A stretch of 64,000 nucleotides of DNA, from the NCBI GenBank assembly GCA_965113315.1, contig OZ220368.1, one strand, 5' to 3'. Positions 7,423 to 49,200 of this stretch are shown here, piece by piece. The stretch's first letter is position 1. Each line of letters begins with the position of its first letter. The DNA comes from Podarcis vaucheri. Its lineage: Eukaryota. Made by a program: the position numbers and the translations under genes. Below the pieces are notes generated by a model. It worked only from the letters and a program-made list of their open reading frames with translations. It did no database searches and was not told the DNA's origin.

Positions 7423-7473
7423 CCTCAATCTAACACAGCCTCTGCGTGATCCCCGCATCATCTTATCCTTTGA
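7423..7473 (-). CDS. OSBPL9: OSBPL9 coding exon 2
   Basis: tttcag|TCAAAGGATAAGATG...TTGAGG|gtaagt; 51 nt encoding SKDKMMRGSRRGCVRLR, phase 0 with exon 1. Exon 3 was not found in the window. Confidence 0.96.
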
Positions 7474-19599: not shown

Positions 19600-20340
19600 A
19601 GTAAAGAGCACTTAGCACCACCAGGCCCTTCGGCTCCCCCCACCCCACAAAAAACCCCACTTCAGTCGCCTCAAGTTAAAACGCGGCCCGACCCCACGCC
19701 CCCCTCCACATAAATCTCCCAACGCTACCACCCTATTGGCTAGCGCCAAAATCTCTGCCATCCCTATTGGCTTCCTCGCGACCGCGACACTCCCTCTCTC
19801 AGAAACCCCTACCCCTGGCAAGCGGGCAGCCTGGCTGTGCTCCGCTTCGCCCCCCCACCCACCCCACCCCCACAGCTCCGTCCTCCCGGTTTGCCCCCCC
19901 CTCCCTCGACACGCACCGTATAGTAGGAGAGCAGCCCCGCGTTGTAGTCGAGCACGAACCAGCGGTACTGCCAGCCTTTCATCACGTTGGTCCATTTACT
20001 CAGCGGGCCTTCCATGATGGACGCCATCTTGGGAGCCGGTAAGATGCCAAGCGGCCCCGCTGAAGCGAACGCCGGTCGCGCGGGCGGGGCTGAAGGAGAA
20101 GGAGGAGGAGCGGGGCGGGCTGGGGGGGAGGAGGAGAGAGGAGGGACGGAGAGAAAGAAAGAACGCGCGAGCGGGCGGGTGCGCGCGCACCGTCAGTGGG
20201 CTAGGCCTGACTGAGGCGGCGCGAGATTAAGAGGAGAGAGGCGACGGGCGCGGCAAGGGAAAAAAACACCGCACACACACACACACAGAGCCTACGCTGC
20301 TAACGAGAGGGAGGAGATAAAGACTGAGGGGGCGTGACTT
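19600..20340. promoter_or_regulatory. CpG island / OSBPL9 promoter
   Basis: GC- and CpG-dense; GGGCGGGG boxes; surrounds exon 1. Boundaries approximate. Confidence 0.85.
19917..20027 (-). CDS. OSBPL9: Oxysterol-binding protein-related protein 9, coding exon 1 (PH domain start)
   Basis: Translates [37 protein letters not shown], the recognisable ORP9 N-terminus; 111 nt followed by a GTGCGT donor; lies in a CpG island. Confidence 0.97.
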
Positions 20341-24035: not shown

Positions 24036-24054
24036 CGTGGTCCCTTCTGATTGG
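24036..24054 (-). promoter_or_regulatory. ER stress response element (ERSE-I, CCAAT-N9-CCACG)
   Basis: Plus strand CGTGG-tcccttctg-ATTGG is the exact reverse complement of the consensus, ~204 bp upstream of the calreticulin-like ATG. Confidence 0.7.
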
Positions 24055-24257
24055 TCCTTGTAGCTCAATTATTCATGGATTCTAACCAGTGGAAAAGACC
24101 CTTCTGTTCAGTATGATTATCAGTGTGATGACTGTTGTGGTTGTAGATTAGGAGAAGTGGGACAATATTTCAGAGGGGGTGTTACTATAGTCCTCTTAGT
24201 GCAATTTATAGAAGCCTCCTACCATTTTCAGAACTCTAAGTTCCTGTGAAACCAGTA

Positions 24258-24408
24258 ATGCAGCTGATTTACTTAGGGACCTTCTTGATAGGACTGGTAT
24301 TTGGGGAACAAACTGACAATGACAATGATGATAGCCCTTCTACTATGTTAGAGACACCACAGCATACAATAATAAAGGAGTATTTTAGGGAAGAGTTTGA
24401 TGATGAAG
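24258..24408 (+). CDS. CALR4: Calreticulin paralogue (CALR4-like) exon 1: signal peptide, acidic extension, start of N-domain
   Basis: In-frame TAA at 24237, ATG at 24258: MQLIYLGTFLIGLVFG-EQTDNDNDDSPSTMLETPQHTIIKEYFREEFDDE(G)|gtaagt. YFREEFDD aligns with CALR YFKEQFLD; phase 1 matches exon 2. Gene symbol rests on OSBPL9/EPS15 synteny. Confidence 0.88.
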
Positions 24409-26235
24409 GTAAGTGATACTTTGCTGTTTCTCTGTTCTGGAAGGAAACGGTTGACTTCCAAATCTTCTTTCATTTATGTAGCCTTACTCTAAAGAGTTGC
24501 ATTCTTGTTTGATTTCATTTTTTTTTACTGTTTAATAATAAAATTAATTGATAAAATACTATGAAATATCTATTTTGTATGGTATCCCTTCTACTAAGCT
24601 ATCAGTACATTCAGTACCACTACAGAAAAAAAATAAAGAATAGAAGCATGAAAGAGAAGACTGACCTTTTGCAATTTCCCCCCAAGTTTAGGAAAACTAA
24701 TAATTAAAAGCAGTTGTCTTGCAAATTTTGTGAGGCTGCTGTCCTGTTCTGCTGTCCTACCTGGCAATATGTCTCACTGAATTCAGTGGCCGTTACATCT
24801 GAGTAGACATGCATAGGATTTCACTGTGAGTGATGCATGGAAGGAACAGAGATAAACCAGTTGAACATGAGGAGTCAGTCCTGATGCATTTGGAATCCTA
24901 GAGCACAGCTAATTTATAAAAGGATGCATCCAAAGTTAATAGTTTCATCTGTTTAAATATAAAGAAAAGGTAACCCAGATAGAAATAGTTTTTACTGTCT
25001 ATTCTGAAACATTCAGAAGCAACTGATGTCCTGATATAGTATAGTGTGTTTCCCTGCATAAGAGATTGCACAGCTTTAAAATCTCTGCTATGTATCCTAA
25101 TTTCAATATCTTTCAATATGTCTTCTTAAGAACTCCTAAGCAGACTGCAATTTTATTTATAGTGCTGCTCTATATGGAGCTAAAGGCAAATTCATTCACA
25201 GTACTAGGTTTCTGGGTTTGGTTAAAAGTTTGATTCTGGTTAATCATTCTTGAAGGTTTTTAGTGCTGTCTCCTAGGAAGAGAGAGTATTTTACATGTCC
25301 TCATCTACCTCCCATACAATTTCCTCCCTTCTTCCAATTTCTTATTTCTATCCCATGGGAAGATCAGTACAGGTGTTATTATCATTTATTATTGCGCCTG
25401 TTTGTACCCTTTCTTTAGAAGACATACTAAATGACACCAGTCTTGTACTGAAAGTCCATTACAAAATGGCTTGAAAATTAATTCAATCTGGTTTATATTA
25501 CATTTGTTTGAATTTTGAGCCCTATGTTCAGTGTTATAAACATGACATAAACCAGGCAAATCACAAACATGATTCAACATGTAGCGAGTGGTCTCTTGGG
25601 ATCATTGAGCAGTTTTCTCTAGCTCCAGATGGAGTTAAATATAGGCTTTTGTGATATTCAGCTAAGCATTCTTGAGTAAAATACTTTTTGTAGGGTTGTT
25701 TTTAACCAAATGTAATTCAAGATATATCAAGAATGCCTTTTTAGGTTTGCTGCCAGGTTTTATGCCTATGATGAAGGTTTCATCACTTGAATGATCTTTA
25801 AGAAAGACGTAGGTGCTCTAGTATGAGTGCTCTAGTATTATTCCTTGTCAGTGGCCACATTCAAATCTCACTCTAAACCACAGTATAGTATGATGAGACT
25901 GAGCAATGGTTTGCCTCTGATACATATGCTCTTTCCCTTCCTTTTCTTCCTCTGGCACAGTAGCACAAGGGGAAGTTCAGAATCTGTTTGCTTCTGCTTT
26001 TGCTTAACCACAGCTTGTTGTGTTACGCAGATTGAAAAAATGTGGTTAATGCTTTGTTTTGTTGGTTTAAAACAACTCTCCTTCAAATGATGAAGTTATT
26101 TTGTTGTTGGTTTAAACAAACCATAGTTAACATTGACCATGGTTCAGGGTTTGGATTAAATATCTGGAAAATTACTGCTTGTTATATGGCTGTTAAGTCC
26201 ATGTGTCGTGTAGCCATGAGTTAATTTGTATAGTA

Positions 26236-26461
26236 CAGTGGTACCTCAGGTTAAGAACTTAATTTGTTCTGGAGGTCCGTTCTTAACCTGAAACTGTTCT
26301 TAACCTAAAGCACCACTTTAGCTAATGGGGCCTCCTGCTGCCGCTGCGCTGCCACTGCATGATTTCTGTTCTCATCCTGAAGCAAAGTTCTTAACCCGAG
26401 GTACTATTTCTGGGTGGGGAGTGGCTGGGGAAACCCAGCCAGATGGGCGGGGTACAAATAA

Positions 26462-26508
<47 letters not shown>

Positions 26509-26558
26509 GGGTTAGCGGAGTCTGTAACCTGAAGCATCTGTAACCCGAGGTACCACTG
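26236..26558. mobile_element. Tc1/mariner MITE, family B, with nested L2 tail
   Basis: TA|cagtggtacctcaggtta...taacccgaggtaccactg|TA; insert at ~26416-26507. Confidence 0.88.
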
Positions 26559-26656
26559 TATATCCTAAAATATTAATTCTATTTTACATAACGTGAAATA
26601 ATTGTTGCATGTTATTGTTTTGCTATACCTCATTGCTACTTCTTTTGCTTTTCCAG

Positions 26657-26758
26657 ATGAATGGGAGAAACGATGGGTTCAATCTAAACATAGATCTGAT
26701 TATGGTAAATTTCGTGTTGCATCAGGAAGGTTTTATGGAGATAGAGAAAAAGATAAAG
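26657..26758 (+). CDS. CALR4: CALR4-like exon 2
   Basis: ttttccag|AT GAA TGG...GAT AAA G|gtaaaa; (D)EWEKRWVQSKHRSDYGKFRVASGRFYGDREKDK; 102 nt as in CALR exon 2. Confidence 0.95.
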
Positions 26759-28093
26759 GTAAAATAATGCATTCTCCCATCCCCCAGGTTGTGAAAAATG
26801 AGATTTGTGACTGAATGCATGCCCTCATTCACTTTTATTCCATTATTGACACAATATTGGCTAGTAATAAAACATCTGCATAACTGTCTATAAAACATCT
26901 ACATAACTAGTGGTGGGCTAGAGAGCAGGGTTTCTGCATCTGAGCAAATTTGTGTCAGTGCAAATAGATCCTACAAGTAATGTGATCCCACACATTTAGC
27001 TCTTTAAAAGTCAAACCAGCACTTTAAATTGAGCCCATAAATAGTCAGTCAATGTAACTGGTGTAGAATGAGTGTAATATGATCCAATATGCCCAAATCG
27101 CACGAGATCCTGGTAGCTGCGTTCTATACCAGTTGGATTTTCTGGGCCACATGTAAAGGCAGATCTATAGAGAGAGCATTACAGTGGCCTAGTCCAGATG
27201 TAACCAGTGAGTGTGTTACTTTTTTCCTAAGATAGGGTCAAGTTAAAATGACAAAAGGCACTCCTAGCCACCTGTGCTAGTAAAGATGATAAATTGGATC
27301 CCTGTAGATTTAAGGCAGGAGTGGGGAACTGGATCTGACCAGTAGGAGGCTACCCACCAGTTGTTTTCCCTGACATTGTTAAAAGAAGAAGCTGATCAGT
27401 AGTTAGAGCAACCACTTTTGAAGAAGCTCTTTCAGTGACTGTCAGCTGATTGGAGCTGGGAGCATGCCTTCAAAGAGACTGTTTATTGGTGGTTATAGGG
27501 AGTCCCTTCAAAGTCTCTGCAGGGGGGGGGGAAATGCTCCTAAAAACAGCATTTTCCCCTCTACCTAGAAAGTGACATGGGTTTAAAGCACTTCTTCCAG
27601 TGCTCTGAATTCAGACTGCTTCCTCTGGGGGGGGGGGGAAGCATGCTATTGCAGCGAATGCCATCTGATTCTTGGGACTGACTGCACTTTGAAGCTCCAA
27701 TGATCAGCTGATTGTCAGCTGCACAGGGCTTTCTGTTCAAGCACCAACAATCAGTGGTTATAGGTGCTTGAACTTTTGTTTTCCCTTTTTCCAGACATCT
27801 CCATTTTCTCTTTGTTTATTTCCCGATTAATGTACAGGCTCTGTAAATTGTTTCTTGACTAATATTTATGCAAGTTTCTAACTTCCCAGAGTAATCAACA
27901 GTGGTATTTTGTATATTGGTGGTCTTCTCTTGTTAACAGTATAACTGGCAAGAGGTTATTTAATATTCATATCCTACATAACGCTAGACAGTCTTTGCGG
28001 TTATATTATTATAACCATAGTAAGGACAGGATTTTGTGAAAGTACAATAAGTTGTTTAAACCATAGTTCTAGATCTTTGATTTAATTTTACAG

Positions 28094-28297
28094 GTCTGAA
28101 GGCAACTGAAGACACTAAGTATTATGCAGTGTCAGCAAGGTTTCCACCCTTCAACAATGAAGGTCAGACGTTAGTGCTTCAGTATACAGTAAAATATGAC
28201 CAACATGTTGATTGTGGTGGTGCCTATGTTAAACTTTATTCTGCAGACCTGGTTCAAGAGGTTATGAATGAAGATTCTGAATATTATATTATGTTTG
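28094..28297 (+). CDS. CALR4: CALR4-like exon 3
   Basis: tttacag|...|gtaagt; GLKATEDTKYYAVSARFPPFNNEGQTLVLQYTVKYDQHVDCGGAYVKLYSADLVQEVMNEDSEYYIMF; 204 nt; calreticulin signature motif. Confidence 0.96.
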
Positions 28298-29430
28298 GTA
28301 AGTTCTCAACATGTCTTATTAGTCAGCAGTCAAAGCATATCCATTTTTACAGTGCAATCCAAGAGAGAATTGGGCTTAGCACTATAAGGAAATTTCTGTT
28401 TTCATATTTTTTGAGTCTACATCACTGTATATATCAGTGGCTGCACACAATTCTGTGCCATGACTTATGATTTAGTCAACTATCTGGTGCAGAAAGCTCA
28501 AGAGCGCCTACCATACTCTTCCGGTAGTCAAATGAGGAAACACACAACAGAGCAGTTGGCTTATCATTACACTGGAATCAGCTCTTCTGGTTTGTTTTTC
28601 TCCAGAAAACCAAAATGTGAAGCCAAGTTCTTGACTTCCCAAACATTGTTTATTTGGAGAGAAAAACCCCAAGAATTGGTTTGGGGATAATGTTAAGCTC
28701 AATGGTTTGTTTCCCCACTCAACTAAGGAAGAAGCAGAGTGGGAGCACATGGGATGCATGCACCAGCATGCACCTTGTGCACTGGTTAGCTTACTAAACC
28801 ATAATTAATAGCTCAGTATTATGGGCAAACACAGCCAGTTTTTGCTTCCTTATGTTTTGCAAAATATATTCAATGAGCTGACAAGGTTGCTGGATCAGGG
28901 TGAAGTCTTCCAGGGAGCTTACAAGCAGGGCATGAAGTCAACAGCTCGCCTCTGCTGCCCCATTGTATGGTGCCAACATTTGATATTGTCTCTGAAGATT
29001 TAATTTAGCTATACACAGCATCAGACCATGAACATAAATCTGAACTTTTTAAAAGCTACTGAAAGTAGTAGCTATCAACCCTTTTGACATCTTTTTTTAA
29101 AACTTCCTGGCAATCAATGTGTCTAACACTTTGCTTATTACTTACAATTTTTGAAAACTGCTCTTTCATCTCCCATGTATGTTGTCTTGAGAGTTAGAAG
29201 TAGTGGGATTAAAATGGTTTTAAAATATTAAAATGTTGGTTGCAAGGGACAGGAAGTAAGTAAGTCACCTTCCACGTTTGGAGAAGAAGAAGAAGAAGAG
29301 GAAGAATAAAGTACTATTAACAGCAATTTCTAAATCAGTGGTCAAACTATCATTAAATGACTTATATTTGTGCAGGTGGAATTCTGATCCAAGTCAATTG
29401 GGTTTTTAGAGCACTGTTGTTTTCTCCTAG

Positions 29431-29525
29431 GTCCAGATATATGTGGAGAAGACAAAAAGATAGTGCAGGTTATCTTCAACTATAAAGATGATTATTATTT
29501 GATCAAAAAAAACATCACATGCGAG
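29431..29525 (+). CDS. CALR4: CALR4-like exon 4
   Basis: ctcctag|...|gtatga; GPDICGEDKKIVQVIFNYKDDYYLIKKNITCE; 95 nt. Confidence 0.95.
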
Positions 29526-29672
29526 GTATGATCAGTATTTTTTTGGTATCTGAGAAGCATTGTTGATTTCTAAACTTTGTTGCTAGTTTTCCTCTACTAA
29601 TTGCATTTTTTGTATCTTTCTGTCTTGCTAAAATTCTACTTTCCACACACAAGCAACAGTGAAAAACCCATA

Positions 29673-29951
29673 CAGTGGTGCCTTGCAAGACGAAATTAAT
29701 CCGTTCCGCGAGTCTCTTCGTCTTGCGGTTTTTTCGTCTTGCGAAGCACGGCTATTAGCGGCTTAGCGGCTATTAACAGCTTAGCGGCTTTAAGAAAAAG
29801 GAAACAAACTCGCAAGAACTCGCAAGACGTTTCATCTTGCGAAGCAAGCCCATAGGGAAATTTGTCTTGCGGAACAACTCAAAAAACGGAAAACTCTTTC
29901 GTCTTGTGCGTTTTTCATCTTGCGAGGCATTCGTCTTGCGAGGTACCACTG
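29673..29951. mobile_element. Tc1/mariner MITE, family A
   Basis: Second copy of the 23518 element; TA TSDs and TIRs. Confidence 0.88.
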
Positions 29952-30762
29952 TAGCTGAAGTCTGGGTCAAGTAGTGTTTTTGAAACTAACAGTAACATAT
30001 ATTACAATTATGTTGGCGAGTAAGGGATAGTTTAACTATGGTTTAATGTTAATGAAAAGTGCTAGTGCATGCTGCTCAAAAAGTCCTCAACTGATTCACC
30101 GCAACTCATTCACTGTTGCTCCTGACCACACTGCACCAGGACCAACAAGCTACAAGCATTGGCATGTTATATTATCTAAATCAAGATTGTAGTTTGTTTG
30201 GAGAGAACATGAGCAGCAGGTTTGTTTCAGGGAAATCAACTACAAGTCTGGATTTCACATTCCATTTCTTTTGTTGATACGTATTGTTACTGGGACCATG
30301 CAAGCATGCTGGAGCTTTGTTCTGCTTTGCTCTTCCCTGGACTGAGTGTGGTGCAGCAACTAAGCCAAAGTTTTGCTTAATGTGTCCTCTGAACCCAGGA
30401 TCATGGTTAAGCTATGAACCCAGTATCATGGTTAAGTTGTAGCCAAGAACAAACATTGGCTGATGGGCACCAATCATTATGGTTGCCACTCTTGCATCCT
30501 AGGCACCATTTACTTTTGACACACAACCCAAGAAGCAAGGGAAATAGCTCTCACCAACCAATAATAAGTACCATGGCATGTCCTCAATTTTCTGGCCTCC
30601 AAACTCTTCAAGCAGTGATTGAGTAGATAATCAGTATGCCATTTTTTTCATTTAGTTTATATTCTGTTGCAACATTTAACAAGGAAAACCATCAGTCAGT
30701 TTGGAATATGAGAAAAGAACTCTCTACTTATGTAATAATCTTTATTATTTTTCTTTTTCGAG

Positions 30763-30972
30763 ACCGATGACTTTACCCATCTCTACACTTTGATACTACG
30801 TCCAGATTTAACATATGAAGTGAAAGTTGATAATTATGTTGCTGAGGCTGGCTATCTAGAAGATGACTGGGACTTCCTTCCTCCAAGGAAGATAGTTGAT
30901 CATGAAATGGCAAAACCTGACTACTGGGATGAAAGGGAGCTTATTGAAGATCCCATGGACAAGAAACCAGAT
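30763..30972 (+). CDS. CALR4: CALR4-like exon 5 (end of N-domain, start of P-domain)
   Basis: tttttcgag|ACCGATGAC...|gtaaag; [70 protein letters not shown]; 210 nt. Confidence 0.95.
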
Positions 30973-32037
30973 GTAAAGTTTCAGTATAATGGTTTCTCTT
31001 TCTATATAGATATATATGTACATTAAAGCTGTCTACTTCCCCAGTTGCATTCTGTCCACTGACCATCTCTTGTTGTCTCAGTTGAAGTCAGTGGGTGTTG
31101 CAGCTGTGCTTATAATTCTATGATTTGCTCCAACAACAGTCTGATATCCATCATTTCCTTTCTATTATTTCTATTATTAAATAATTCTTACTTCAGTCAA
31201 TTTCACAATGGTAGCTAATTATTACTTCCATTTAGCAAATGGAGGAGCTGAGGCAATATATGATCATTTACTTGCCTGGGGCTGAGTTGGGTTAAACTCT
31301 AAAATCAATTCTGCACCTCAGTGACATTTGTCTTCGCCTTTACAGACAAATGTCTGCACCCAAGCAAACATTTATACATTCTTTATACACAAAGCAGCAT
31401 ATGTCACTTTTGCCAGGACTTCTTACTTCACCTGACCAGATGAGGGCATAGATGGCAAATACCCAAGTCTCATAGATAGTTCCCCATTCTGGACTCAAAC
31501 CCCAGCACCTCAAGCCCACAGATAAGGATAACATCAAAACAAGCCAATTAACTTATATCAAAGGAAGTGAGTATGAACATACATGAGCTCATTGTTACAT
31601 CAACTACCAATTAATTGTGGGGTTATATTGACTACCAAGATGGTGTTTGCAGTGCTTCTAGAACAGTTCACCTTTGGTTCAACACAAAGTTCAATACAGT
31701 ATATGTCTATCACGGGATTAATAAAAACAAATTTCCATGCCTGGTAGTTGTTGCAGTGAATTTTGTTGAATGCCACAGAACCTAAAAGCTTGTTAAGTGT
31801 GGTAACATATGAAATGCTAGATGATAACAGAAAACAATATAATAACCAATACTTATTTTTATGTATTTATTTACATTTATATTTTGCTACTCTTCCAGCA
31901 CGGAACTCAACTTACTAATTGGTCAATGTGATATTAAATGAGCAAGCATTTTAATAAACTGTCAGGATTATCTTGCTGCTAAAATACATGTTTGAGAAAA
32001 CAATCTTTATTGATTATATGAATGCATACTGTTTTAG

Positions 32038-32151
32038 GATTGGGATCAGCCAGAAAGAATTCCTGACCCAAATGTCACGAAGCCAGATGACTGGGATGAA
32101 GAAATGGATGGAGAGTGGGCACCACCATCGGTTCCAAACCCGGAGTACAGA
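32038..32151 (+). CDS. CALR4: CALR4-like exon 6 (P-domain tip)
   Basis: gttttag|...|gtaagc; [38 protein letters not shown]; 114 nt. Confidence 0.96.
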
Positions 32152-33891
32152 GTAAGCTTGGTATAGGTCTGCATAATAATAAATGCAGAGACTTAGATGG
32201 TAAACAGTAGGGGTCGTATACCCAGAGTAGACCCATTTAAATGGATAGATTTAAGTTAGTCAAGTCCATTGAATTCAGTAAGTCTCTGAGTATGACTTAG
32301 TCCAGGGATTGTCTACCTGGTGCCAAGTTTGTTTCCCTTGAGCATCTTTGGTTTTTGGTTTTGTTTTCAAAAAATAGGCATTTCCTTTACCCATGGAGGA
32401 ACTTTTCTAACGGGTGGGGTTTCTCAGTGATATTCTGTGTTGAGAGAGATGTATTTTTTTTGGGGGGGGAGTCACACATATGGCATTTGTGTGAGGTCCA
32501 GGGATGAGGGAGCAGCAGTGACTGCACTCTCTAATCTTGTCTTATGCCATACCGCCATAGCAGCCATTTTGTAACAGGCACCCACAGCACTTCCTCAGAA
32601 TTCAAAGTGTGCTCACTGGTCCAAAAAGGTACCATGTTTAACCTGAGGCATTTTATCTTACTACCTACTCTCCTGTTCAGTCTTTCTGAATCTACCTTCA
32701 TTTGGCTTTGCCTGTATTTCTCAAGTCCCCCATCCTTAAATGCCATCTCTTGTACCAGTATCTCCCTTCAAGCAGCTATATCCCATCACTTACTAAGCCC
32801 TCAAATAGGTACTGCTTTCTCTGTTTTTCTTGCTGCTCTCTTTTTGACCCACTGGTTTGGATTCCTCTTTCTCTTTCTCTCTCTTTCTTTACCACTTCCA
32901 AGTAGTTGCTGTCTCCAGTCTGCTTTTCATCCTCTCTACTGACTGTTGAAATCATTGTCTATGCTTTTCTTCCATTACCACAATTGTCACATAGTATTTT
33001 TAAGTCCTTGCAGAACTTTTACCCACCTTATATTATCAGTTTCAACCCTTTAGTTTTGTAGCTTTTAGTTTTGCAGCTCAAATCCGTGGTTGTGTCTCCA
33101 CTCTCACTGCTTTTTCCATCACTTCTTGCTTTCTCCATTCTATTCACACCTCATCAGCTCCCCCCGCCCTCCTGTTTCCATTCCTGTCCCCCTCTCCCAC
33201 ATGTATTCAGGGGTGTGTGGAGGGGGCGGTCTGCCCCGGGTGCCACTCTAGGGGGGGGGTGACAAGATGGCCCCTGCCTCCCCCCAACTGTAGAGCGGCC
33301 AAGGGCGTGTGCAGTCCATATGGGCTGCCGTTCTCATGCACTGTCCATATGGGCTGCTGCGCGTGCGCACGTACAGCTGCATCCCGTGCAGTCGTCACAC
33401 ACGTGCAGTCCATACAGGATGCTGCACATGCACACTCCGTACAGGCTGCCCCACCCCAGGTACCGGAGAGGGTTCCTCCGCCACTGCTTGTATTATCTTC
33501 AAATTAAGACAAAATCTGTAGCTCTCCAGTTGTTGCTAGACTCCAACTCCCATAAGCCCCAGCCAACATAGTATGGAAGGGATGTTGAGAAGTGGGAAAC
33601 CAACAACATATGGGCGGCTACTTCCCCATCCTAGTGAAATCATTGTTAAAGTACAAGTCAATGGTATATAATTAGTTTTACTTATTGTAAAATAAAGCTT
33701 CTGTTGGCATTATCACTATGAAAGGCCCACACTCAAAACTGTAAATAATGTGTCAGTACATATTTAGCAAATGATGATAATACATTCCATATTGTTATTT
33801 TTCTTTCACTAGACTTAGCAAATATTTATTTTGACTAAATTGGGTTTGGGGGGAAATAAACTTCAAGCTTGTCTCAATTGTTCTTTTTTAG

Positions 33892-34035
33892 GGAATTTGG
33901 AAGCCCCGTATAATCAAAAATCCCAATTATAATGGCATATGGGTTCAGCCATTAGTTGATAATCCAGAATACACACCTGATCCTAATCTTTACAAGTATT
34001 TCAACATCAGTGTCATTGGTTTAGAAATTTTACAG
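33892..34035 (+). CDS. CALR4: CALR4-like exon 7
   Basis: ttttttag|...|gtatgt; GIWKPRIIKNPNYNGIWVQPLVDNPEYTPDPNLYKYFNISVIGLEILQ; 144 nt. Confidence 0.96.
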
Positions 34036-34211
34036 GTATGTATTTTATAGAGTTTTCAGAAATAATTCCTTAACTGGAAAGATAATTCTTATTACAGAGT
34101 CTAGTTGTATTCTGTACCATTATGAGGGAAAAGCTGTCCAATTTTCTAATTTGAATCATTCACAGGAGAAAAATAGCATTAGCAACCCATTCATTTTGAA
34201 AATATGATATA

Positions 34212-34441
34212 CAGTGGTACCTCAGTTTACAAACTTAATCTGTTCCAGAAGTCCGTTCTTAAACCGAAACCATTCTTAAACCGAGGTGCGCTTTCGCTAA
34301 TGAGGCCTCCTGACGCCGGTGCACTTCCACCATTCGGATTCCGTTCTTAGACCGAGGTAAAGTTCATAAACCGGGACACTACTTCCGGTTTTAAACCGAA
34401 TCGTTCTTAAACAGGACTGTTCTTAAACCGAGGTACCACTG
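34212..34441. mobile_element. Tc1/mariner MITE, family B variant
   Basis: cagtggtacctcagttta...taaaccgaggtaccactg TIRs. Confidence 0.82.
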
Positions 34442-34805
34442 TGTTGTGTTTCCCATTTGCAGCATTTGCAATTAATTCAAACGACTGCATGGTCATCTAT
34501 AGAATCTGCTTCAGTGGTGATCTTCACACCATGTGCTCTAGAGTAGGATTATTGTGGAGTAGATAATTTGAGAAGAATGGCCTCTGATATTAGAAGATTA
34601 TGATATAGCTGGATTGATGGGATGACAAACCTGTGTACTGGCTTTGAGTATGAACGCAATGTTAAATCTGAATTTATTAGAATAGGAGCACGCTAAATTG
34701 GTAGGCGCAGTGGAACTTACTTTTGACTTACATGTATATTGTTGAAATGTGGGGCTTTTAATGCAAAGCCTGTGACATCTGCAATCTGAGAATCATTTTT
34801 CATTA

Positions 34806-35039
34806 CAGTGATACCTCTGGTTACGAACTTAATTCGTTCTGGAGGTCCATTCTTAACCTGAAACTGTTCTTAACCTGAGGTACCACTTCAGCTAATGGGG
34901 CCTCCCGCTGCCACCGCCGCACGATTTCTATTCTCATCCTGAGGTAAAGTTCTTAACCCGAGGTACTACTTCTGGGTTAGCGGAGTCTGTAACCTGAAGC
35001 GTATGTAACCTGAAGCGTATGTAACCCGAGGTACCACTG
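34806..35039. mobile_element. Tc1/mariner MITE, family B
   Basis: Uninterrupted copy; TIRs and TA TSDs. Confidence 0.88.
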
Positions 35040-35477
35040 TAAAAGGCTCCAGATACCGTAACTAGATAAGCCTTCCTGATACAGGGAAACAGAACCATTT
35101 TGAATCTGGCTTCTAGTCTTCAGAAAACGAGACAGTTTCCTAAAGAAGAAATGGGGGCAATCACCTAATTACGTACCCTTTGCATGTCATGGTTGAATTC
35201 CAACCCGTTTTACCTAGTCCATGGCAAATAGAAATTGAATTATTTTTTTAATCAAAATTCTACAGAATGAAAACATAAACACAGTAGAATTAATATAAAC
35301 TTAATATAGATATGAAGCAACAGCTTTGGGACTGTATATATTTGCTTTCATCACAAAATGCTGAATTTCTGGTTGAAGGAATTGGTTAATATATTATGCA
35401 TGTGTGAGCTAGGAAGTTTTCCTCAAAATAACAATGAAATATTATATAGGCACGCTGCCATTTTCTATTGCTTGTTC

Positions 35478-35551
35478 ATATTTTATATTATTTTAGTATA
35501 CAGCAGGAAATAATATTTTATATTATTATTTTAGTATACAGAAGGAAATAA
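35478..35551. repeat. Tandem duplication of a ~35-38 bp AT-rich unit
   Basis: atattttatattattttagtatacagcaggaaata occurs twice, imperfectly. Confidence 0.8.
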
Positions 35552-36165
35552 ATTATTTTAAATAAATAGATAGCCACTTAATACAGGTTTGAGAAGAAAA
35601 TAATGCAGCTTTGTACAATCTCACTTCTAGAAACCATGTATCACCCATTCTTGCAGCATTGTATTGTAGCTATAGGGCAGGATTCACATAACTAGCCCCG
35701 TCAGCAGAAGCCCTGCACAAGGACTTCAACTTGCGCAATGGGGTTCCGTCCTCCTCTCCCTGTCAGCCCCTTAAAATTGGATGGAAGGAAGTGAGGAAAA
35801 CCCCCAGAACAGCATGTGGTGGGAGAAGAGAGGAGCTTGCTCTGTCTCACATTGAATTCCACCCATAGGTTTTGGGATTTTTTTGTATCACCTTTAATCA
35901 TTGTATCCAATGTTGTGCCCAATTTATATTGTGAGCTTTTTCTGGTGAAGCACCATTCTTGTTGGTATTAAATTCAGGCAGCGGTCATAACTCCATTACC
36001 TAATAATAAATGTCTCTGAATTCAACAGGTCTTACTTCTGAGTACACATAGTTGGACTTCCATTATCACAAGTATATATGGCTCACATATATGGCTCACA
36101 AATCTAGCTATATTGTGTTTACTTCAGTAACTCATTTTTCCCTTCTACCTTTTTAATTCCAACAG

Positions 36166-36258
36166 GGAAAGTCTGGCACAATCTTTGACAATTTTCTTAT
36201 CACAAATGATGAACAATATGCTGAAGATGCTGGGAATGAAATGTGGGGTCCCACATTT
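36166..36258 (+). CDS. CALR4: CALR4-like exon 8
   Basis: ccaacag|...|gtaagt; GKSGTIFDNFLITNDEQYAEDAGNEMWGPTF; 93 nt. Confidence 0.96.
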
Positions 36259-36916
36259 GTAAGTAACGTAATCACCATACAAGAGTGGCTGCATTGAGAT
36301 GGTGCAGAAGGGCTTTTGCTAGTATACCTGCACAGCTCCAGGTGTCCAGGCATTTGTATAATTACCATAAGAGCCTTGAACCCTGCAGCAGTCTCGCCAC
36401 TACATTCTGCACTACCTGGTTCAAGACCAGGCTCAAGGACTTCCCCACATAGAGTATACTGCAGTTATCAAGTCTTGAGGTTACTTATGCATGGACTCCT
36501 GTTATCATGATCCAGTTATTGTCATAGCTGGTGTACCAGACAAAGTTGGTAAAAGGCATTCCTAGCAGAGGTCACTTAGGCCTCTAACCACAGATTTGTA
36601 TCCAGGAATACCAGTACCTGGTTCTGATTGCTTTATGAAGCACCTGAGCCCTACTGCATTGGCAGAAGAATCCTCCTGTGGATTGATCCAGGCTGTTGGT
36701 TGCTGTTATCATTAGCTCATAAGAGAATTCCTCTAGCAATACAGTAAGGCTCAGATGCTTCATAAGGTAAAACAGGACCAGGATTCAATGGGGTATCTTT
36801 GCTGGTCTGAGGTACACTAAGGAAAATGTGGGTGAACAGGGGGTAAGTTGTAAAGCAAGCATAATTTGTGAGGGTACACAATATTCCATTACTATTCAAG
36901 AAATATGCCAAGTTCC

Positions 36917-36917
<1 letters not shown>

Positions 36918-36965
<48 letters not shown>

Positions 36966-37257
36966 TTATTATTTATACCCTGCCCATCTGGCTGGGTTTC
37001 CCCAGCCACTCTGGGCGGCTTCCAAAAGAATATTAAAATACTATTATACATCAAACATTAAAAGCTTCCCTAAACAGGGCTGCCTTCAGATGTCTTCTAA
37101 AAGTCTGGTAGTTGTTGTTCTCTTTGACATCTGGTGGGAGGGCGTTCCACAGGGAGGGCGCCACTACTGAGAAGGCCCTCTGCCTGGTTCCCTGTAACTT
37201 GGCTTCTCGCAGTGAGGGAACCGCCAGAAGGCCCTCGGTGCTGGACCTCAGTGTCTG
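36918..37257 (-). mobile_element. L2-like LINE 3' fragment with (TTA)n tail
   Basis: Peptide LRSSTEGLLAVP...RAFSVVAPSLWNALP...FRRHLKAALF; tail merges into the (AAT)15 microsatellite at 36918-36963. Confidence 0.85.
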
Positions 37258-38171
37258 ATCCTTACACATATCTGCTTGATACTATATCTTGTTAAGTTCA
37301 GTCAGTCTTGTTCGAGCAAGCTGTAATCCTGTGCACCCTTACCTAGAAGTAAATCTTGTTGAACATAGTAGGATTTACTTCTGTGTAAACATGAATAGAA
37401 TTATTAGACTGCACATCCTGCAGAGTTTAGTTAACCATAACTAGCACTAACAGGATTCATAAAATCAATACTATACCTACTGTACATAATATTTTTATAC
37501 ATAGAAGTAGCCAGTAAAGAACTGTAGAAATGCATGCTTCCATTATTACAGTGTAAGAAACAAAACTGATGTAGTTCCAAACATATTAAGATCTGCTTGA
37601 AAAACACAAGCTTTAGGTGTTAAGGGAAGCTAGTTAAATTCTTTTGAAATTATGAAGAACTCACTGAAAACTAAGGAATAAATGTACAAATGTAGCTGTA
37701 CAGATTGCACAAAAATAACAAAAAGCCAAGCAAGGTATATACAACACTAAAGAAAGTGACAAAAATATCTGAGGGTGGGAAAGTTTTCAGTGTTGCATCA
37801 CGTCTGATTATTAGGAATTTTCATAGTGACTTTAGATTGGGGGGAAATACCTTCAGAGTTAAGGCTTGAACCTACATTTTCAGTGTGAGGCCCTCTTTCT
37901 CACTGACTCTTTGCCAAGAAGGAAAGGGAGGCAGATTTCAAAAACAAATCTCTTACGGAAACTTATAGAAGTAAATGTCTGCATTTCATATTCTGGCTGT
38001 GACATTTACATTTTTTAAAAATTGACTCGAGGTAATGTATTCCTATAACCTTCATTTGGTCTTAACACATGGAATACTATTGAATAAGTTATTTGCAGCT
38101 TATTTATATTAATATTTAACATGGTTTTTCATCTTGCCAACATGCTTTACAATTCTTGTTTGAATAAACAG

Positions 38172-38306
38172 GAGAGAGAATGGAAGAGAAGACAGGGACA
38201 AGATGTTGTGTATAAAAAAATTAATGAAAATGAGGAACCGAAAGGAAAAGAAGGCAAGAAAGAAAAAAGGAAGAAAAAAGATCGCAATGTTAAAGATGAG
38301 CTCTAA
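38172..38306 (+). CDS. CALR4: CALR4-like exon 9 (C-tail with KDEL, stop)
   Basis: aaacag|GAGAGAGAATGG...; EREWKRRQGQDVVYKKINENEEPKGKEGKKEKRKKKDRNVKDEL*; phase 0 with exon 8. Total CDS 1248 nt = 415 aa. Confidence 0.92.
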   Translation, partial: EREWKRRQGQDVVYKKINENEEPKGKEGKKEKRKKKDRNVKDEL

Positions 38307-40370: not shown

Positions 40371-43120
40371 AATCATAGAATCATAGAATCATAGAGTTGG
40401 AAGAGACCACAAGGGCCATTGAGTCCAACCCCCTGCCAAGCAGGAAACACCATCAGAGCACTCCTGACATATGGTTGTCAAGCCTCTGCTTAAAGACCTC
40501 TAAAGAAGGAGACTCCACCACACTCCTTGGCAGCAAATTCCACTGTCGAACAGCTCTTACTGTCAGGAAGTTCTTCCTAATGTTTAGGTGGAATCTTCTT
40601 TCTTGTAGTTTGGATCCATTGCTCCGTGTCCGCTTCTCTGGAGCAGCAGAAAACAACCTTTCTTCCTCCTCTATGTGACATCCTTTTATATATTTGAACA
40701 TGGCTATCATATCACCCCTTAACCTCCTCTTCTGCAGGCTAAACATGCCCAGCTCCCTTAGCCGTTCCTCATAAGGCATCGTTTCCAGGCCTTTGACCAT
40801 TTTGGTTGCCCTCCTCTGGACACGTTCCAGTTTGTCAGTGTCCCTCTTGAATTGTGGTGCCCAGAACTGGACACAGTACTCCAGGTGTGGTCTGACCAGA
40901 GCAGAATACAGTGGCACTATTACTTCCCTTGATCTAGATGCTATACTCCTATTGATGCAGCCCAGAATTGCATTGGCTTTTTTAGCTGCCGCGTCACACT
41001 GTTGGCTCATGTCAAGTTTGTGGTCAACCAAGACTCCTAGATCCTTTTCACATGTACTGCTCTCAAGCCAGGTGTCACCCATCTTGTATTTGTGCCTCTC
41101 ATTTTTTTTGCCCAAGTGCAATACTTTACATTTCTCCCTGTTAAAATTCATCTTGTTTGTTTTTGCCCAGTTCTCTAATCTGTCAAGGTCGTTTTGAAGT
41201 GTGATCCTGTCCTCTGGGGTGTTAGCCACCCCTCCCAGTTTGGTGTCATCTGCAAATTTGATCAGGATGCCCTTGAGTCCATCATCCAAGTCGTTGATAA
41301 AGATGTTGAATAAGACCGGGCCCAAGACAGAACCCTGTGGCACCCCACTAGTCACTCTTCTCCAGGATGAAGAGGAACCATTGATGAGCACCCTTTGGGT
41401 TCGGTCAGTCAGCCAGTTACAAATCCACTGAGTGGTAGCATAGTCAAGACCGCATTTTACCAGCTTCTTTACAAGAATATCATGGGGCACCTTGTCAAAT
41501 GCCTTGCTGAAATCAAGGTAGGCTACATCCACTGCGTTCCCTTCATCTACCAGGCTTGTAATTCTGTCAAAAAACGAGATCAGGTTAGTCTGACATGACT
41601 TATTTTTCAGAAATCCATGCTGACTATTGGTGATCACAGCATTCCTTTCTAGGTGCTCACAGACTGTTTGCTTAATGATCTGCTCCAGAATCTTCCCTGG
41701 TATTGATGTCAGACTGACTGGGCGGTAATTATTTGGGTCCTCTCTTTTCCCCTTTTTGAAAATAGGGACAACATTTGCCCTCCTCCAGTCTGCCGGGACT
41801 TCGCCTGTTCTCCAGGAATTCTCAAAGATGACTGCCAGTGGTTCTGAGATCACATCTGCCAGTTCTTTTAATACTCTTGGATGCAGTTCATCTGGCCCTG
41901 GAGACTTGAATACATCTAAACTAGCCAAATATTCTTGTACTATCTCCTTAGTTATTCTGGGCTGTGTTTCCTTTGCTGAATCATTTGCTCCAAATTCTTC
42001 AGGTCGGGCATTGTTTTCTTTATCGGAGAAGACTGAGGCAAAGAAGGCATTGAGTAGTTCAGCCCTTTCTGTGTCCCCTGTTTGCATTTCACCATCTTCT
42101 CCTCTGAGTGACCCCACAGTTTCTTTGTTCTTCCTTTTGCTACGAACATACCCATAAAAGCCTTTTTTGTTGCTTTTAACCTCTCTAGCAAGCCTGAGTT
42201 CATTCTGTGCTTTAGCTTTTCTGACTTTGTGTCTACACGTGCTGGCTATTTGTTTGAATTCCTCTTTGGTGGTTTCCCCCCTTTTCCATTTTTTGTACAC
42301 ATCCTTTTTTAATCTTAATTCAGTTAAAAGTTCTTTAGATAGCCACCCTGGCTTCTTTAGGCACCTTCCATGTTTCCGTCTCATTGGTATTGCCTGTCGT
42401 TGTGCTTTTACTATCTCCCTCTTAACAAACTCCCAGCCATCATGAACTCCCTTTCCTTTAAGTATTGCTGTCCATGGGATCTCACCCAGCACTTCCCTAA
42501 GTTTTATGAAGTCGGCTTTCTTAAAGTCAAGAAATTGAGTCCTAGTATGCTTGGCTGCTCCTTTCCGCTGTATAGTAAACTTCAGAAGAGCATGATCACT
42601 CGCGCCTAATGATCCTTCCACATCTACCCCACTAACCAGGTCATCAACATTGGTTAGGACCAGATCTAAAATGGCTGTTCCTCTTGTTGCTTCTCCCACT
42701 TTCTGGACAATGAAGTTGTCTGCAAGGCCAGTGAGGAATCTGTTTGACCTTATGCTCTTGGCTGAGTTTGACGTCCAACAAATATCCGGGTAATTGAAGT
42801 CCCCCATTACTACTATCTCCCTTCCTTTTGCATGCTTGGCCATCTGTTCCAGGAAGGCATCATCTATGTCCTCCGTTTGGCTTGGGGATCTATAGTAAAC
42901 TCCCACAATGAGGTCTCTGTTATTCTTCTCTCCCTTAATTTTGACCCAAATGCTCTCACTTTGGCTTTGAGGTTCTAAATCTTGGATCTCTTCACAGGTA
43001 TACACATCCCTGACATATAACGCCACTCCTCCTCCTTTCTTGTCTGGTCTGTTTCTTTGAAATAGATTGTATCCCCCCAAAATAGATTGTATCCCCCCAA
43101 AATAGATTGTATCCCCCCAT
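40371..43120 (-). mobile_element. CR1 LINE, 5'-truncated, with uninterrupted ORF2 (partial APE endonuclease + reverse transcriptase)
   Basis: 875-codon ORF 40453-43080 with [26 protein letters not shown] and FADD motifs; 3' end is a (ATTCTATG)n CR1 tail. Confidence 0.96.
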
Positions 43121-47929: not shown

Positions 47930-49200
47930 TGCCATCGTAGGGCGTGCTTACTCGGGAGCAAACAGCACCGAACACGGCGAGATCTACTTTATAGAGTATT
48001 ATATACACACACAACCGAGGTTAGCCACCACAGCGCGTACGCCCAACTAGAAAGCTCTGCCAAGTTCTCCCTCTGCACAACTCCAGTCCGCATTTTCGTA
48101 GCCGCCGAGCTTAACTGAGGTCGAGCCGAACCCTTCCTGGCCGGCTGGCTGGGAATCCGGGCCAGGCGAGCGTAATAGTATTCCTCCGAGCGGAGGCCGA
48201 ATTGAGCGGTTGCTCGGTGGTGGCTCCGCTCCAGAGGGGGCCGTGCCGGGAAGGGATCCGGGCGCCGGGCTTTGCTACGCAGCAGGGCGGGGCCTGGCTG
48301 GGGGTGGCTCGGGAAGTTGCCGAAGTTGGGCAGAGAGTGGAGGGACGGAGCCAGCGAGCGCCTGCCTGCCTGCCTGCCTGCTCGGGCCGGGCCTTCCTGG
48401 GTGCTGCTCTTCCCCCTCCCGCCCTCTCTTCCCTGCCCGGCCGGTGCATGATGGAAGCAGCATGGCCGCTCATCTTTCCTTAACGCAGGTAGGGACGGCT
48501 CGCTTTTCGTTCGGTGGGGAGGGAGTGGGCTGGTTAGCTAGGGCGGGGGAGGCAGCCGGGGGAAGCCTCGCCTCCACGCTCCCGCCGTCTCCCCTTGGAA
48601 GAGTTTCCTTTGTGACCTGGCCGCCTCCCGCTTCCATTCCTCCTCGTAGCCCTTTCCCTGACCGCGTCTCCCCTCGGGGCGCTTGTCCGCCTGCGCCCCC
48701 CTTCGCAACACCCGCCCTCCATCTCTGGGACGCCCCTTGGAACCCAGCCGGGCTTACTTCTGAGGAGGCGCCTTGTTTATGAACAGCCTCCCCTGTTTCC
48801 GTGCTCCCCAAGCTCTCTAGTCTTCCTTCCTAGTCTCCTCCTCCTCCTCCCAAGTTCTGCTGTTTGCCCCAAAGCTGCCGCCCTTCACTTCGCCGGTGGT
48901 TCCCACGGGGGACTCCGCGCCTTGTTTCGCGGAAGCGGACGACGTGGGCTGCGCCTTACGCAAAGCTCGTAACGCAGAGAACGTGTCTAGCGGGCGCCCG
49001 GAATTCCGCGGCTCTTGTCAGTCTCCAGCCGGTGTGGCGAAGAGTGACGGGCTTAGGAGCTGGGCTGACAAGGGGTCAAAGCTCCACTCACCCGGGAAAC
49101 TTTGTGTTTATTCGCTGCCTCTTCGCCTAATCTTCCTCACGGGGTTGTTGTGAGGAGAACATGGGGAGGGAAAGGGCCACGGACACCGCCTTGAACTCCC
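47930..49200. promoter_or_regulatory. CpG island / EPS15 promoter
   Basis: CpG-dense; GC box gggcggggc at ~48285; surrounds exon 1. Boundaries approximate. Confidence 0.85.
48462..48488 (+). CDS. EPS15: Epidermal growth factor receptor substrate 15, coding exon 1
   Basis: agcATGGCCGCTCATCTTTCCTTAACGCAG|gtaggg = MAAHLSLTQ (human MAAAAQLSLTQ); strong Kozak context; lies in a CpG island. Confidence 0.92.

Follow-up and report, generated by a model that had tools for sequence, protein, structure and literature searches.

A squamate calreticulin-like gene, likely the orthologue of mouse Calr4, lacks a tryptophan tied to client holding by calreticulin

Introduction

The V2R receptors for pheromones and prey are hard to express outside their own neurons because calreticulin retains them. 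In the mouse, basal V2R neurons of the vomeronasal organ are enriched for the calreticulin paralogue Calr4, which can partially substitute for calreticulin without retaining V2Rs; a review describes the molecular reason for this as undetermined (PMC4194052). Calr4 is thus a known chaperone of V2R neurons, and an earlier reading of the DNA described here, made from sequence only, was wrong to call CALR4 essentially uncharacterised. That reading was right that CALR4 is pseudogenised in human (CALR4P, a unitary pseudogene; PMC2864566). The loss of Calr4 was already tied to the loss of V2Rs in earlier literature. Squamates have large V2R repertoires (PMC3590772), turtles have 0–3 V2Rs, and birds and crocodiles have none (PMC10869828).

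In calreticulin (CALR), the glucose of the client's glycan is read by Y109, K111, Y128, and D317, while W319 is the centre of the peptide-binding edge and is required for chaperone activity (PMC3057994). Both W319 and H145 belong to a set of 14 residues whose conservation extends from protozoa to calnexin (PMC9744295, Table 2).

Here we describe a calreticulin-like gene at 24258..38306 (plus strand) of a 64,000-nt window of the lizard Podarcis vaucheri (contig OZ220368.1, assembly GCA_965113315.1). The gene's presence in databases, its membership in the calreticulin family, and the link to V2Rs were already known. What is new is that the squamate protein has W319L, H145Q, and a short basic tail, none of which we found in print. 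It is a natural variant, conserved over 40 species, without the residue that is most tied to holding by calreticulin. A lizard Calr4 may already feature in the genome survey of Dey and Matsunami (2011) or its supplements. One supplementary file of the rattlesnake chemoreceptor paper had no matches to calr or calreticulin.

Results

An intact nine-exon gene

The exons and nearby features are as follows (residues in CALR numbering).

19917..20027, minus strand: OSBPL9-like coding exon 1, the upstream neighbour, head to head with the calreticulin-like gene
24036..24054, minus strand: perfect ER-stress response element (ERSE), CCAAT-N9-CCACG, lying 204 nt ahead of the ATG
24258..24408, plus strand: exon 1, signal peptide (about residues 1–16), acidic 20-residue extension, and first beta strand
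26657..26758, plus strand: exon 2, lectin domain
28094..28297, plus strand: exon 3, with C105, Y109, K111, Y128, and M131 kept and F74Y, G108A, and G124E
29431..29525, plus strand: exon 4, with D135 and C137 kept and K143I and H145Q
30763..30972, plus strand: exon 5, with the D166-H170-D187 triad kept, the start of the P-arm, and a weak GAG acceptor
32038..32151, plus strand: exon 6, the tip of the P-arm, with the equivalents of E255, D258, and W261 kept
33892..34035, plus strand: exon 7, type-2 repeats, with D317E and W319L
36166..36258, plus strand: exon 8, with V321G and with D328 and W347 kept
38172..38306, plus strand: exon 9, short basic tail, KDEL, and stop
48462..48488, plus strand: EPS15-like coding exon 1 (9 codons only) in a CpG island, the downstream neighbour

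The nine exon lengths of the sequence-only reading (151/102/204/95/210/114/144/93/135 nt) are exact, and all eight introns are GT-AG. Joining the exons gives 1248 nt, which encode the claimed 415 amino acids and a stop. When chains of segments of the same lengths were drawn at random from the region, none of 20,000 were free of stops. The translated product has the signal peptide, the full P-arm (three type-1 and three type-2 repeats), the KDEL end, and the other motifs that had been listed. No transmembrane stretch was found by hydropathy (the highest 19-residue value was 0.92). The protein has the signal peptide, soluble body, and KDEL of the calreticulin family; the signal peptide and membrane-helix calls are both from hydropathy. 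The Pfam Calreticulin family matched four of the eight exons scanned. A full-length scan and a structural model were made on the 99.7% identical protein of P. lilfordi, which has PF00262 and the lectin beta-sandwich with its P-arm; in its AlphaFold model (pLDDT 84), the best Foldseek match is calreticulin (rmsd 1.2 Å to 3o0w).

Gene models from related lizards agree with this structure. A RefSeq Podarcis model is identical over exons 2–9 (365/365 residues). The P. lilfordi model agrees over the entire protein, including the signal peptide, with a single gap, and the same N-terminus from exon 1 is found in the P. lilfordi, Lacerta, and Zootoca models. We also noticed that the acceptor of intron 4, in front of exon 5, is a weak GAG, which the sequence-only reading does not mention; one Podarcis model skips exon 5 (P0089).

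Neighbourhood and promoter

We take the neighbouring exon at 19917..20027 to be from OSBPL9 and that at 48462..48488 to be from EPS15 and not EPS15L1. With these names, the gene lies between OSBPL9 and EPS15, as proposed earlier and as in the mouse interval. The second OSBPL9-like exon is near 7423–7473; we did not find EPS15 exons beyond the first within the 64-kb window. The calreticulin-like gene has an alternative first exon, which lacks the signal peptide and is antisense to OSBPL9-like coding exon 1. This exon starts 24 of the 83 squamate records (12 species). In RefSeq, P. muralis, P. raffonei, and both anoles examined have models that begin with it.

The ERSE at 24036..24054 (consensus from PMC5890977) is a candidate site for control by ER stress. 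It is the sole match in the window, with 0.06 expected per window, and 6 of 100 shuffled sequences had a match anywhere. A scan for the olfactory EBF/Olf-1 motif gave two matches versus 1.5 expected, with none near the promoter, so we rejected this site.

Orthology and distribution

The gene is likely the squamate orthologue of mouse Calr4. In a mixture-model tree, the squamate, mammalian CALR4, and amphibian sequences form one clade (support of 100/99), and the mammalian cluster includes the mouse protein named "calreticulin 4." The same clade is recovered, again with 100/99, if the amniote CALR3 sequences are dropped. Conversely, if the squamate sequences are dropped, then CALR3 clusters with the calr3 sequences of fish (93/96), which separates the squamate gene from CALR3; an AU test does not reject a placement with CALR3 (p = 0.12). 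A grouping of squamates with mammals is neither supported nor rejected (p = 0.44). Vertebrate calnexin and calmegin were not among the matches and hence are outside the trees; we ruled out these identities from the architecture (no type I transmembrane anchor, a KDEL end, and 3+3 repeats).

The squamate gene's stem branch is long, with 0.50 changes per site, and is followed by strong conservation: the Podarcis protein is 82–86% identical to those of gecko, rattlesnake, and anole. Geckos have a separate CALR3 gene and anoles have a separate CALR gene.

The squamate gene was found in 83 records from 40 named species, with the database label "calreticulin-like," which bears out its proposed retention in squamates. 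But retention is not specific to squamates, as CALR4 is also found in rodents, marsupials, monotremes, and amphibians. Among the best 120 matches per search, neither the mammalian or amphibian CALR4 sequences nor the squamate set included any from birds, crocodiles, turtles, or tuatara. Among the matches listed, the spread of CALR4 tracks the V2R-rich lineages.

Changes in the client-binding site and the tail

The position of W319 is leucine in all 78 squamate records that cover it (5 of the 83 lack the segment). Among 198 non-squamate records, 190 cover the site, with tryptophan in 188 and phenylalanine in two, and the other eight have gaps. The position of H145 is glutamine in 83/83 squamate records and in 21/28 eutherian CALR4 records, versus histidine in 9/9 marsupial or monotreme records and 15/15 amphibian records; H145Q of the squamate gene is shared only with eutherian CALR4. 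No squamate record that covers these positions has the lectin patch of W319 and H145 (the GxxxW motif).

The glucose pocket is otherwise kept (C105, Y109, K111, Y128, M131, D135, and C137), with D317 replaced by glutamate, as are the residues of the arm tip that would contact ERp57 (E255, D258, and W261). C105, C137, G106, G107, Y109, K111, Y128, M131, D135, and I147 show no variation among the squamate records covering them. At 47 alignment columns, the squamate consensus is unlike CALR and all other groups. The C-terminal tail of 44 amino acids has 11 D/E versus 17 K/R and is not an acidic calcium-storing tail. The changes at W319, H145, and the tail were absent from the sequence-only reading.

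Proposed function

By analogy to mouse Calr4, we propose, with somewhat better than even confidence, that the squamate protein is a lectin chaperone of the ER lumen that serves vomeronasal V2Rs and holds its clients loosely. The gene would be transcribed from its own promoter, with input from ATF6/NF-Y via the ERSE. The protein would bind monoglucosylated N-glycans and recruit ERp57 with the tip of its arm. Because W319, at the peptide/mannose edge of the site, is absent, unfolded clients would be bound weakly and released rather than retained. It would store little calcium. It would act in V2R neurons, like mouse Calr4; this vomeronasal role is borrowed from the mouse protein. Counting against the V2R role, mouse Calr4 has just 60% identity in the core, its tail is acidic, and W319 is retained. 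Counting against a role in one tissue, the ERSE suggests general control by stress.

A bolder reading, which we offer tentatively and consider rather unlikely, is that CALR4 was rebuilt on the squamate stem into a dedicated release-type chaperone as V2Rs became the dominant vomeronasal repertoire. The glucose pocket and the ERp57 arm would have been kept, the holding site at Trp319 and the calcium store would have been dropped, and H145Q, which would have converged with eutherian CALR4, would be the missing determinant of V2R exit from the ER. If so, the lizard protein could better aid the expression of orphan V2Rs in cell lines. More broadly, the squamate protein could become a tool for work on the large repertoires of orphan V2Rs in lizards and snakes, and W319 and H145 are two specific positions to test for V2R release.

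Alternative explanations

The CALR4 orthologue could instead be a general chaperone in squamates, induced by stress or working in secretory tissues or testis, without a special link to V2Rs. We think this is unlikely: it would fit with the perfect ERSE, with identity within squamates that is tighter than that between mouse and platypus (76%), and with the short basic tail, which is like that of gecko CALR3 (CALR3 is described as testis-specific in mammals; PMC9744295). However, mouse Calr4 is enriched in the vomeronasal organ and was not detected in islets, the distribution among the matches listed follows V2R-rich lineages, and squamates still have an intact CALR (P0104). It is less probable still that W319L, H145Q, K143I, and G124E jointly abolish glycan binding and leave only an adaptor that recruits ERp57 or serves a specific client. 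Several of the 47 squamate-distinct columns are on the lectin face, and both W319 and H145 belong to the 14 deeply conserved residues (PMC9744295), but the ten residues listed above from C105 to I147 are invariant in the squamate records covering them, and glutamate at position 317 is also found in calnexin and CALR3.

We also considered that this position might be occupied not by CALR4 at all, but by a copy of CALR3 or CALR that was duplicated in squamates. A 274-sequence FastTree unites the long branches of the squamate gene and amniote CALR3 (support 0.89), a grouping that the AU test does not reject (p = 0.123), and the raw identity to CALR exceeds that to mouse Calr4 (65% to anole CALR in the core). 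This seems very unlikely given the mixture-model trees and the long-branch extraction, which separate the gene from CALR3, and the AU test, which rejects placement with tetrapod CALR (p = 0.011). The locus between OSBPL9-like and EPS15-like exons also argues against it; calr of sole adjoins eps15l1-klf2, in a separate paralogous block (PMC6579814). Finally, decay or silencing, with most transcripts reading through from the OSBPL9 promoter and lacking the signal peptide, would fit the records that begin with the antisense exon as well as the weak GAG acceptor and the exon-skipping models. We consider it highly improbable, as the frames are open in 40 species with 79–99% identity, the signal-peptide exon is conserved in geckos, iguanians, anguimorphs, lacertids, and snakes, and the ERSE precedes exon 1.

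Comparison with known systems

The closest known counterpart is mouse Calr4 (NP_001272824.1, P0305), which shares the squamate protein's clade, gene neighbourhood, soluble N/P/C layout, KDEL, E/D/W of the P-arm tip, glucose pocket, and H145Q. Mouse Calr4 has W319, D317, V321, a long acidic tail, and D166N, whereas the squamate protein has W319L, D317E, V321G, K143I, G124E, an intact D166, the acidic 20-residue N-terminal extension, and the basic 44-residue tail.

CALR (PF00262; PDB 3o0w, 3pos, and 7qpd) is alike in its fold, 3+3 P repeats, disulfide, D-H-D triad, and D328. In contrast to CALR, the squamate protein has lost W319 and H145, and its tail has a net charge of +6 instead of about −26. 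The sizes of exons 2–8 are those of human CALR. CALR3 (calsperin) resembles the squamate protein in E317 (in mammals), a short and less acidic tail (8 acidic and 15 basic residues in gecko CALR3), and a long branch; but CALR3 keeps W319 and H145, has a gene of its own in the gecko genomes that carry the squamate gene, and groups with fish calr3. Calnexin and calmegin share the lectin fold and glutamate at position 317, but the squamate protein has KDEL and no transmembrane segment, and its structural and sequence matches to them are weaker.

Gene structure and predicted protein

The sequence-only reading described nine spliced exons, and we recovered the same nine, at the same positions and lengths (24258..38306, + strand). 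Each of the eight introns has GT-AG ends, and the joined exons encode 415 amino acids followed by a stop codon; when 20,000 chains of the same exon lengths were drawn at random, none was free of stops. Four of the eight exons that we scanned (1–3 and 5–9) match the Pfam Calreticulin domain singly. The protein has a hydrophobic N-terminus, three type-1 and three type-2 P repeats, and a KDEL end; we saw no membrane anchor in it. Exons 2–9 are identical to the RefSeq model of Podarcis muralis/raffonei (365/365 residues), and the P. lilfordi model matches the P. vaucheri protein end to end, one gap excepted. The gene is real and is already in the databases as "calreticulin-like". The P. lilfordi protein, modelled with AlphaFold from a 70-row alignment (pLDDT 84), has the predicted fold of a normal calreticulin and fits the glycan-bound lectin domain 3o0w with an rmsd of 1.2 Å.

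Models from Lacerta and Zootoca start at an ATG four codons earlier. This codon is GTG in P. vaucheri (window 24246-24257), so the P. vaucheri protein begins at the second methionine. The intron 4 acceptor (30760-30762) is GAG, a weak form; the sole other in-frame AG nearby, at 30717, runs into stop codons. Exon 5 is missing from one Podarcis model.

Neighbourhood, promoter and repeats

Features around the gene (window coordinates)
20027 (start), -, upstream flanking coding exon; its second exon is near 7470
20014, +, ATG of an alternative first exon, which splices to 26657
24036-24054, perfect ER-stress element; sole match in the window, 0.06 expected (spotted by eye and counted afterwards, a post hoc test)
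48462, +, downstream flanking coding exon of nine codons
23517-23790 and 29675-29952, short inverted-end element copies, first set, by eye
26237-26560, 34211-34442 and 34805-35040, short inverted-end element copies, second set, by eye

We take the minus-strand neighbour to be OSBPL9 and the plus-strand neighbour to be EPS15. The sequence-only reading placed human CALR4P and mouse Calr4 between these genes, and putative OSBPL9 and EPS15 coding exons flank the P. vaucheri gene on both sides. In mouse, Osbpl9 and Calr4 lie within one interval (PMC7561370). The putative ER-stress element (consensus in PMC5890977) is the motif expected before an ER chaperone gene.

In 24 of 83 squamate records (12 species), the first exon is antisense to the first OSBPL9-like exon. 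These records lack the signal peptide and the model's first beta strand, and coding sequence on the opposite strand dictates where they start, so we read the alternative starts as by-products of a two-way promoter. The signal-less exon is likely to arise by read-through from it. That exon-skipping and alternative-start models were annotated suggests that spliced reads exist.

The two short element types have several copies in and around the gene, with inverted ends of the CAGTGGT...ACCACTG type, and are likely MITEs. A 902-aa open frame at 40453-43161 (-) has endonuclease and reverse transcriptase domains and looks like a recently inserted LINE, presumably CR1-like. An assembly gap of 140 N (1503-1642) lies outside the gene.

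Probable assignment to CALR4

Sequence searches and cluster look-ups gave 354 related proteins. With a Zootoca query, squamate records matched at 71–99% and the next matches at about 62%. The squamate rows group with an amphibian set and with mammalian CALR4, including the named mouse calreticulin 4, in a 70-row FastTree (support 98) and in a 42-row IQ-TREE mixture tree with rows hand-picked for taxon spread (100/99).

The sequence-only reading set a grouping with CALR or CALR3 against a CALR4 identity. Forcing the squamates with tetrapod CALR was rejected (AU test, p = 0.011). We also considered that the gene might be a CALR3 duplicate. Forcing it with amniote CALR3 was not rejected (p = 0.123), a 274-row FastTree joined the two (0.89), and by raw identity the protein is closer to anole CALR (65%) than to mouse Calr4 (60%), all of which count against CALR4. 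However, with the other long branch (amniote CALR3) taken out, the squamates stay with CALR4 (100/99), and with the squamate branch taken out, CALR3 goes with fish calr3 (93/96). Such a separation when either branch is removed is expected under long-branch attraction. In geckos CALR3 is present as a gene of its own, and so is CALR in anoles. We consider a CALR3 duplicate very improbable; from the trees and synteny, the squamate gene is very probably the CALR4 orthologue, as first proposed.

Ray-finned fish "calreticulin" (records P0098, P0105 and P0146) and a third shark paralogue (P0153 and P0168) group with tetrapod CALR4, not CALR (95/81 and 95/93 in the 42-row tree; in the two long-branch-removal trees the fish branch has 89/80 and 87/81). 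Judging from these placements, fish "calr", which PMC5824609 files with human CALR, may be a CALR4 orthologue. In two fish models (P0043 and P0049), a calreticulin of the calr3 type is fused to a UBL/UBA protein, probably RAD23-like, which suggests that these genes adjoin, as human CALR and RAD23A do.

Residue and tail changes in squamates

We aligned 281 of 289 proteins, leaving out eight fragment, fusion, duplicated-domain or calnexin-like rows (CALR numbering). In the squamate records that cover them, C105, G106, G107, Y109, K111, Y128, M131, D135, C137, I147, the D166-H170-D187 triad, and E255, D258 and W261 of the P-arm tip are invariant. At W319, 78 of the 83 squamate records have L and the other five do not include the segment, which leaves 39 of the 40 species covered; the 198 remaining records have W in 188 cases, F in 2 and a gap in 8. 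All 83 squamate records have Q at H145; eutherian CALR4 has Q (21/28), K (6) or R (1), and H is kept in marsupials and monotremes (9/9), amphibians (15/15) and 140 of 146 other records. Both residues are conserved from protozoa through calnexin (PMC9744295, Table 2). The tryptophan is still present in mouse Calr4. Accompanying changes are D317E, V321G, K143I/V, G124E, G108A and, mostly, F74Y. Squamates carry a short, basic tail (76 records; median 43 aa, net +4), versus a net charge of -17 to -26 in other groups.

Among the inner branches of the 42-row mixture tree, the squamate stem is the longest (0.50), and core identity across gecko, anole and rattlesnake is 82–86%, versus 76% for mouse/platypus. 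As read from these sequences, the history is a burst of change with constraint afterwards. Among the literature listings that we searched, no paper dealt with the gene in squamates or with its changes (the original Calr4 study may mention a lizard copy), and the rebuilt binding edge and tail shared across squamates seem to be undescribed so far.

Proposed role

The sequence-only reading called CALR4 essentially uncharacterised, but a vomeronasal role is in print: according to PMC4194052, mouse vomeronasal organ expresses Calr4 in place of calreticulin, Calr4 partly rescues calreticulin loss and does not retain V2Rs (the molecular basis is called undetermined there), and pseudogenisation is found mainly in species without V2Rs. 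The description of human CALR4 as a pseudogene in the sequence-only reading agrees with a table in PMC2864566 (unitary pseudogene). Basal V2R neurons are enriched for Calr4 (10.1101/2022.01.14.476379, PMC13354959, 10.1101/2024.01.08.574704). In squamates V1Rs are few and V2Rs numerous (PMC3590772); V2Rs are absent from birds and crocodiles and number 0–3 in turtles (PMC10869828). We found no bird, crocodile, turtle or tuatara records among the CALR4 rows in the best 120 rows per search. The manatee, dugong and Glossophaga CALR4 models (P0185, P0188 and P0303) are flagged LOW QUALITY PROTEIN, which would fit decay of the gene in some mammals.

Our direct results are the gene's anatomy and the residue pattern. 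By analogy with established calreticulin biology, the protein would enter the ER, be retrieved through KDEL, recognise glucose, and recruit ERp57 via the arm tip. Loss of W319 would weaken its hold on unfolded clients, it would store little calcium, and, by homology to mouse, it would act in V2R neurons. We lean modestly towards this whole chain. A general or testis chaperone seems unlikely but deserves some weight; a non-lectin adaptor is distinctly improbable, and a silent gene is the least credible reading of all.

The gene is intact and very probably a CALR4 orthologue, already listed in databases, from a family whose vomeronasal role was known before. Its rebuilt binding edge and tail offer a test of why Calr4 spares V2Rs.
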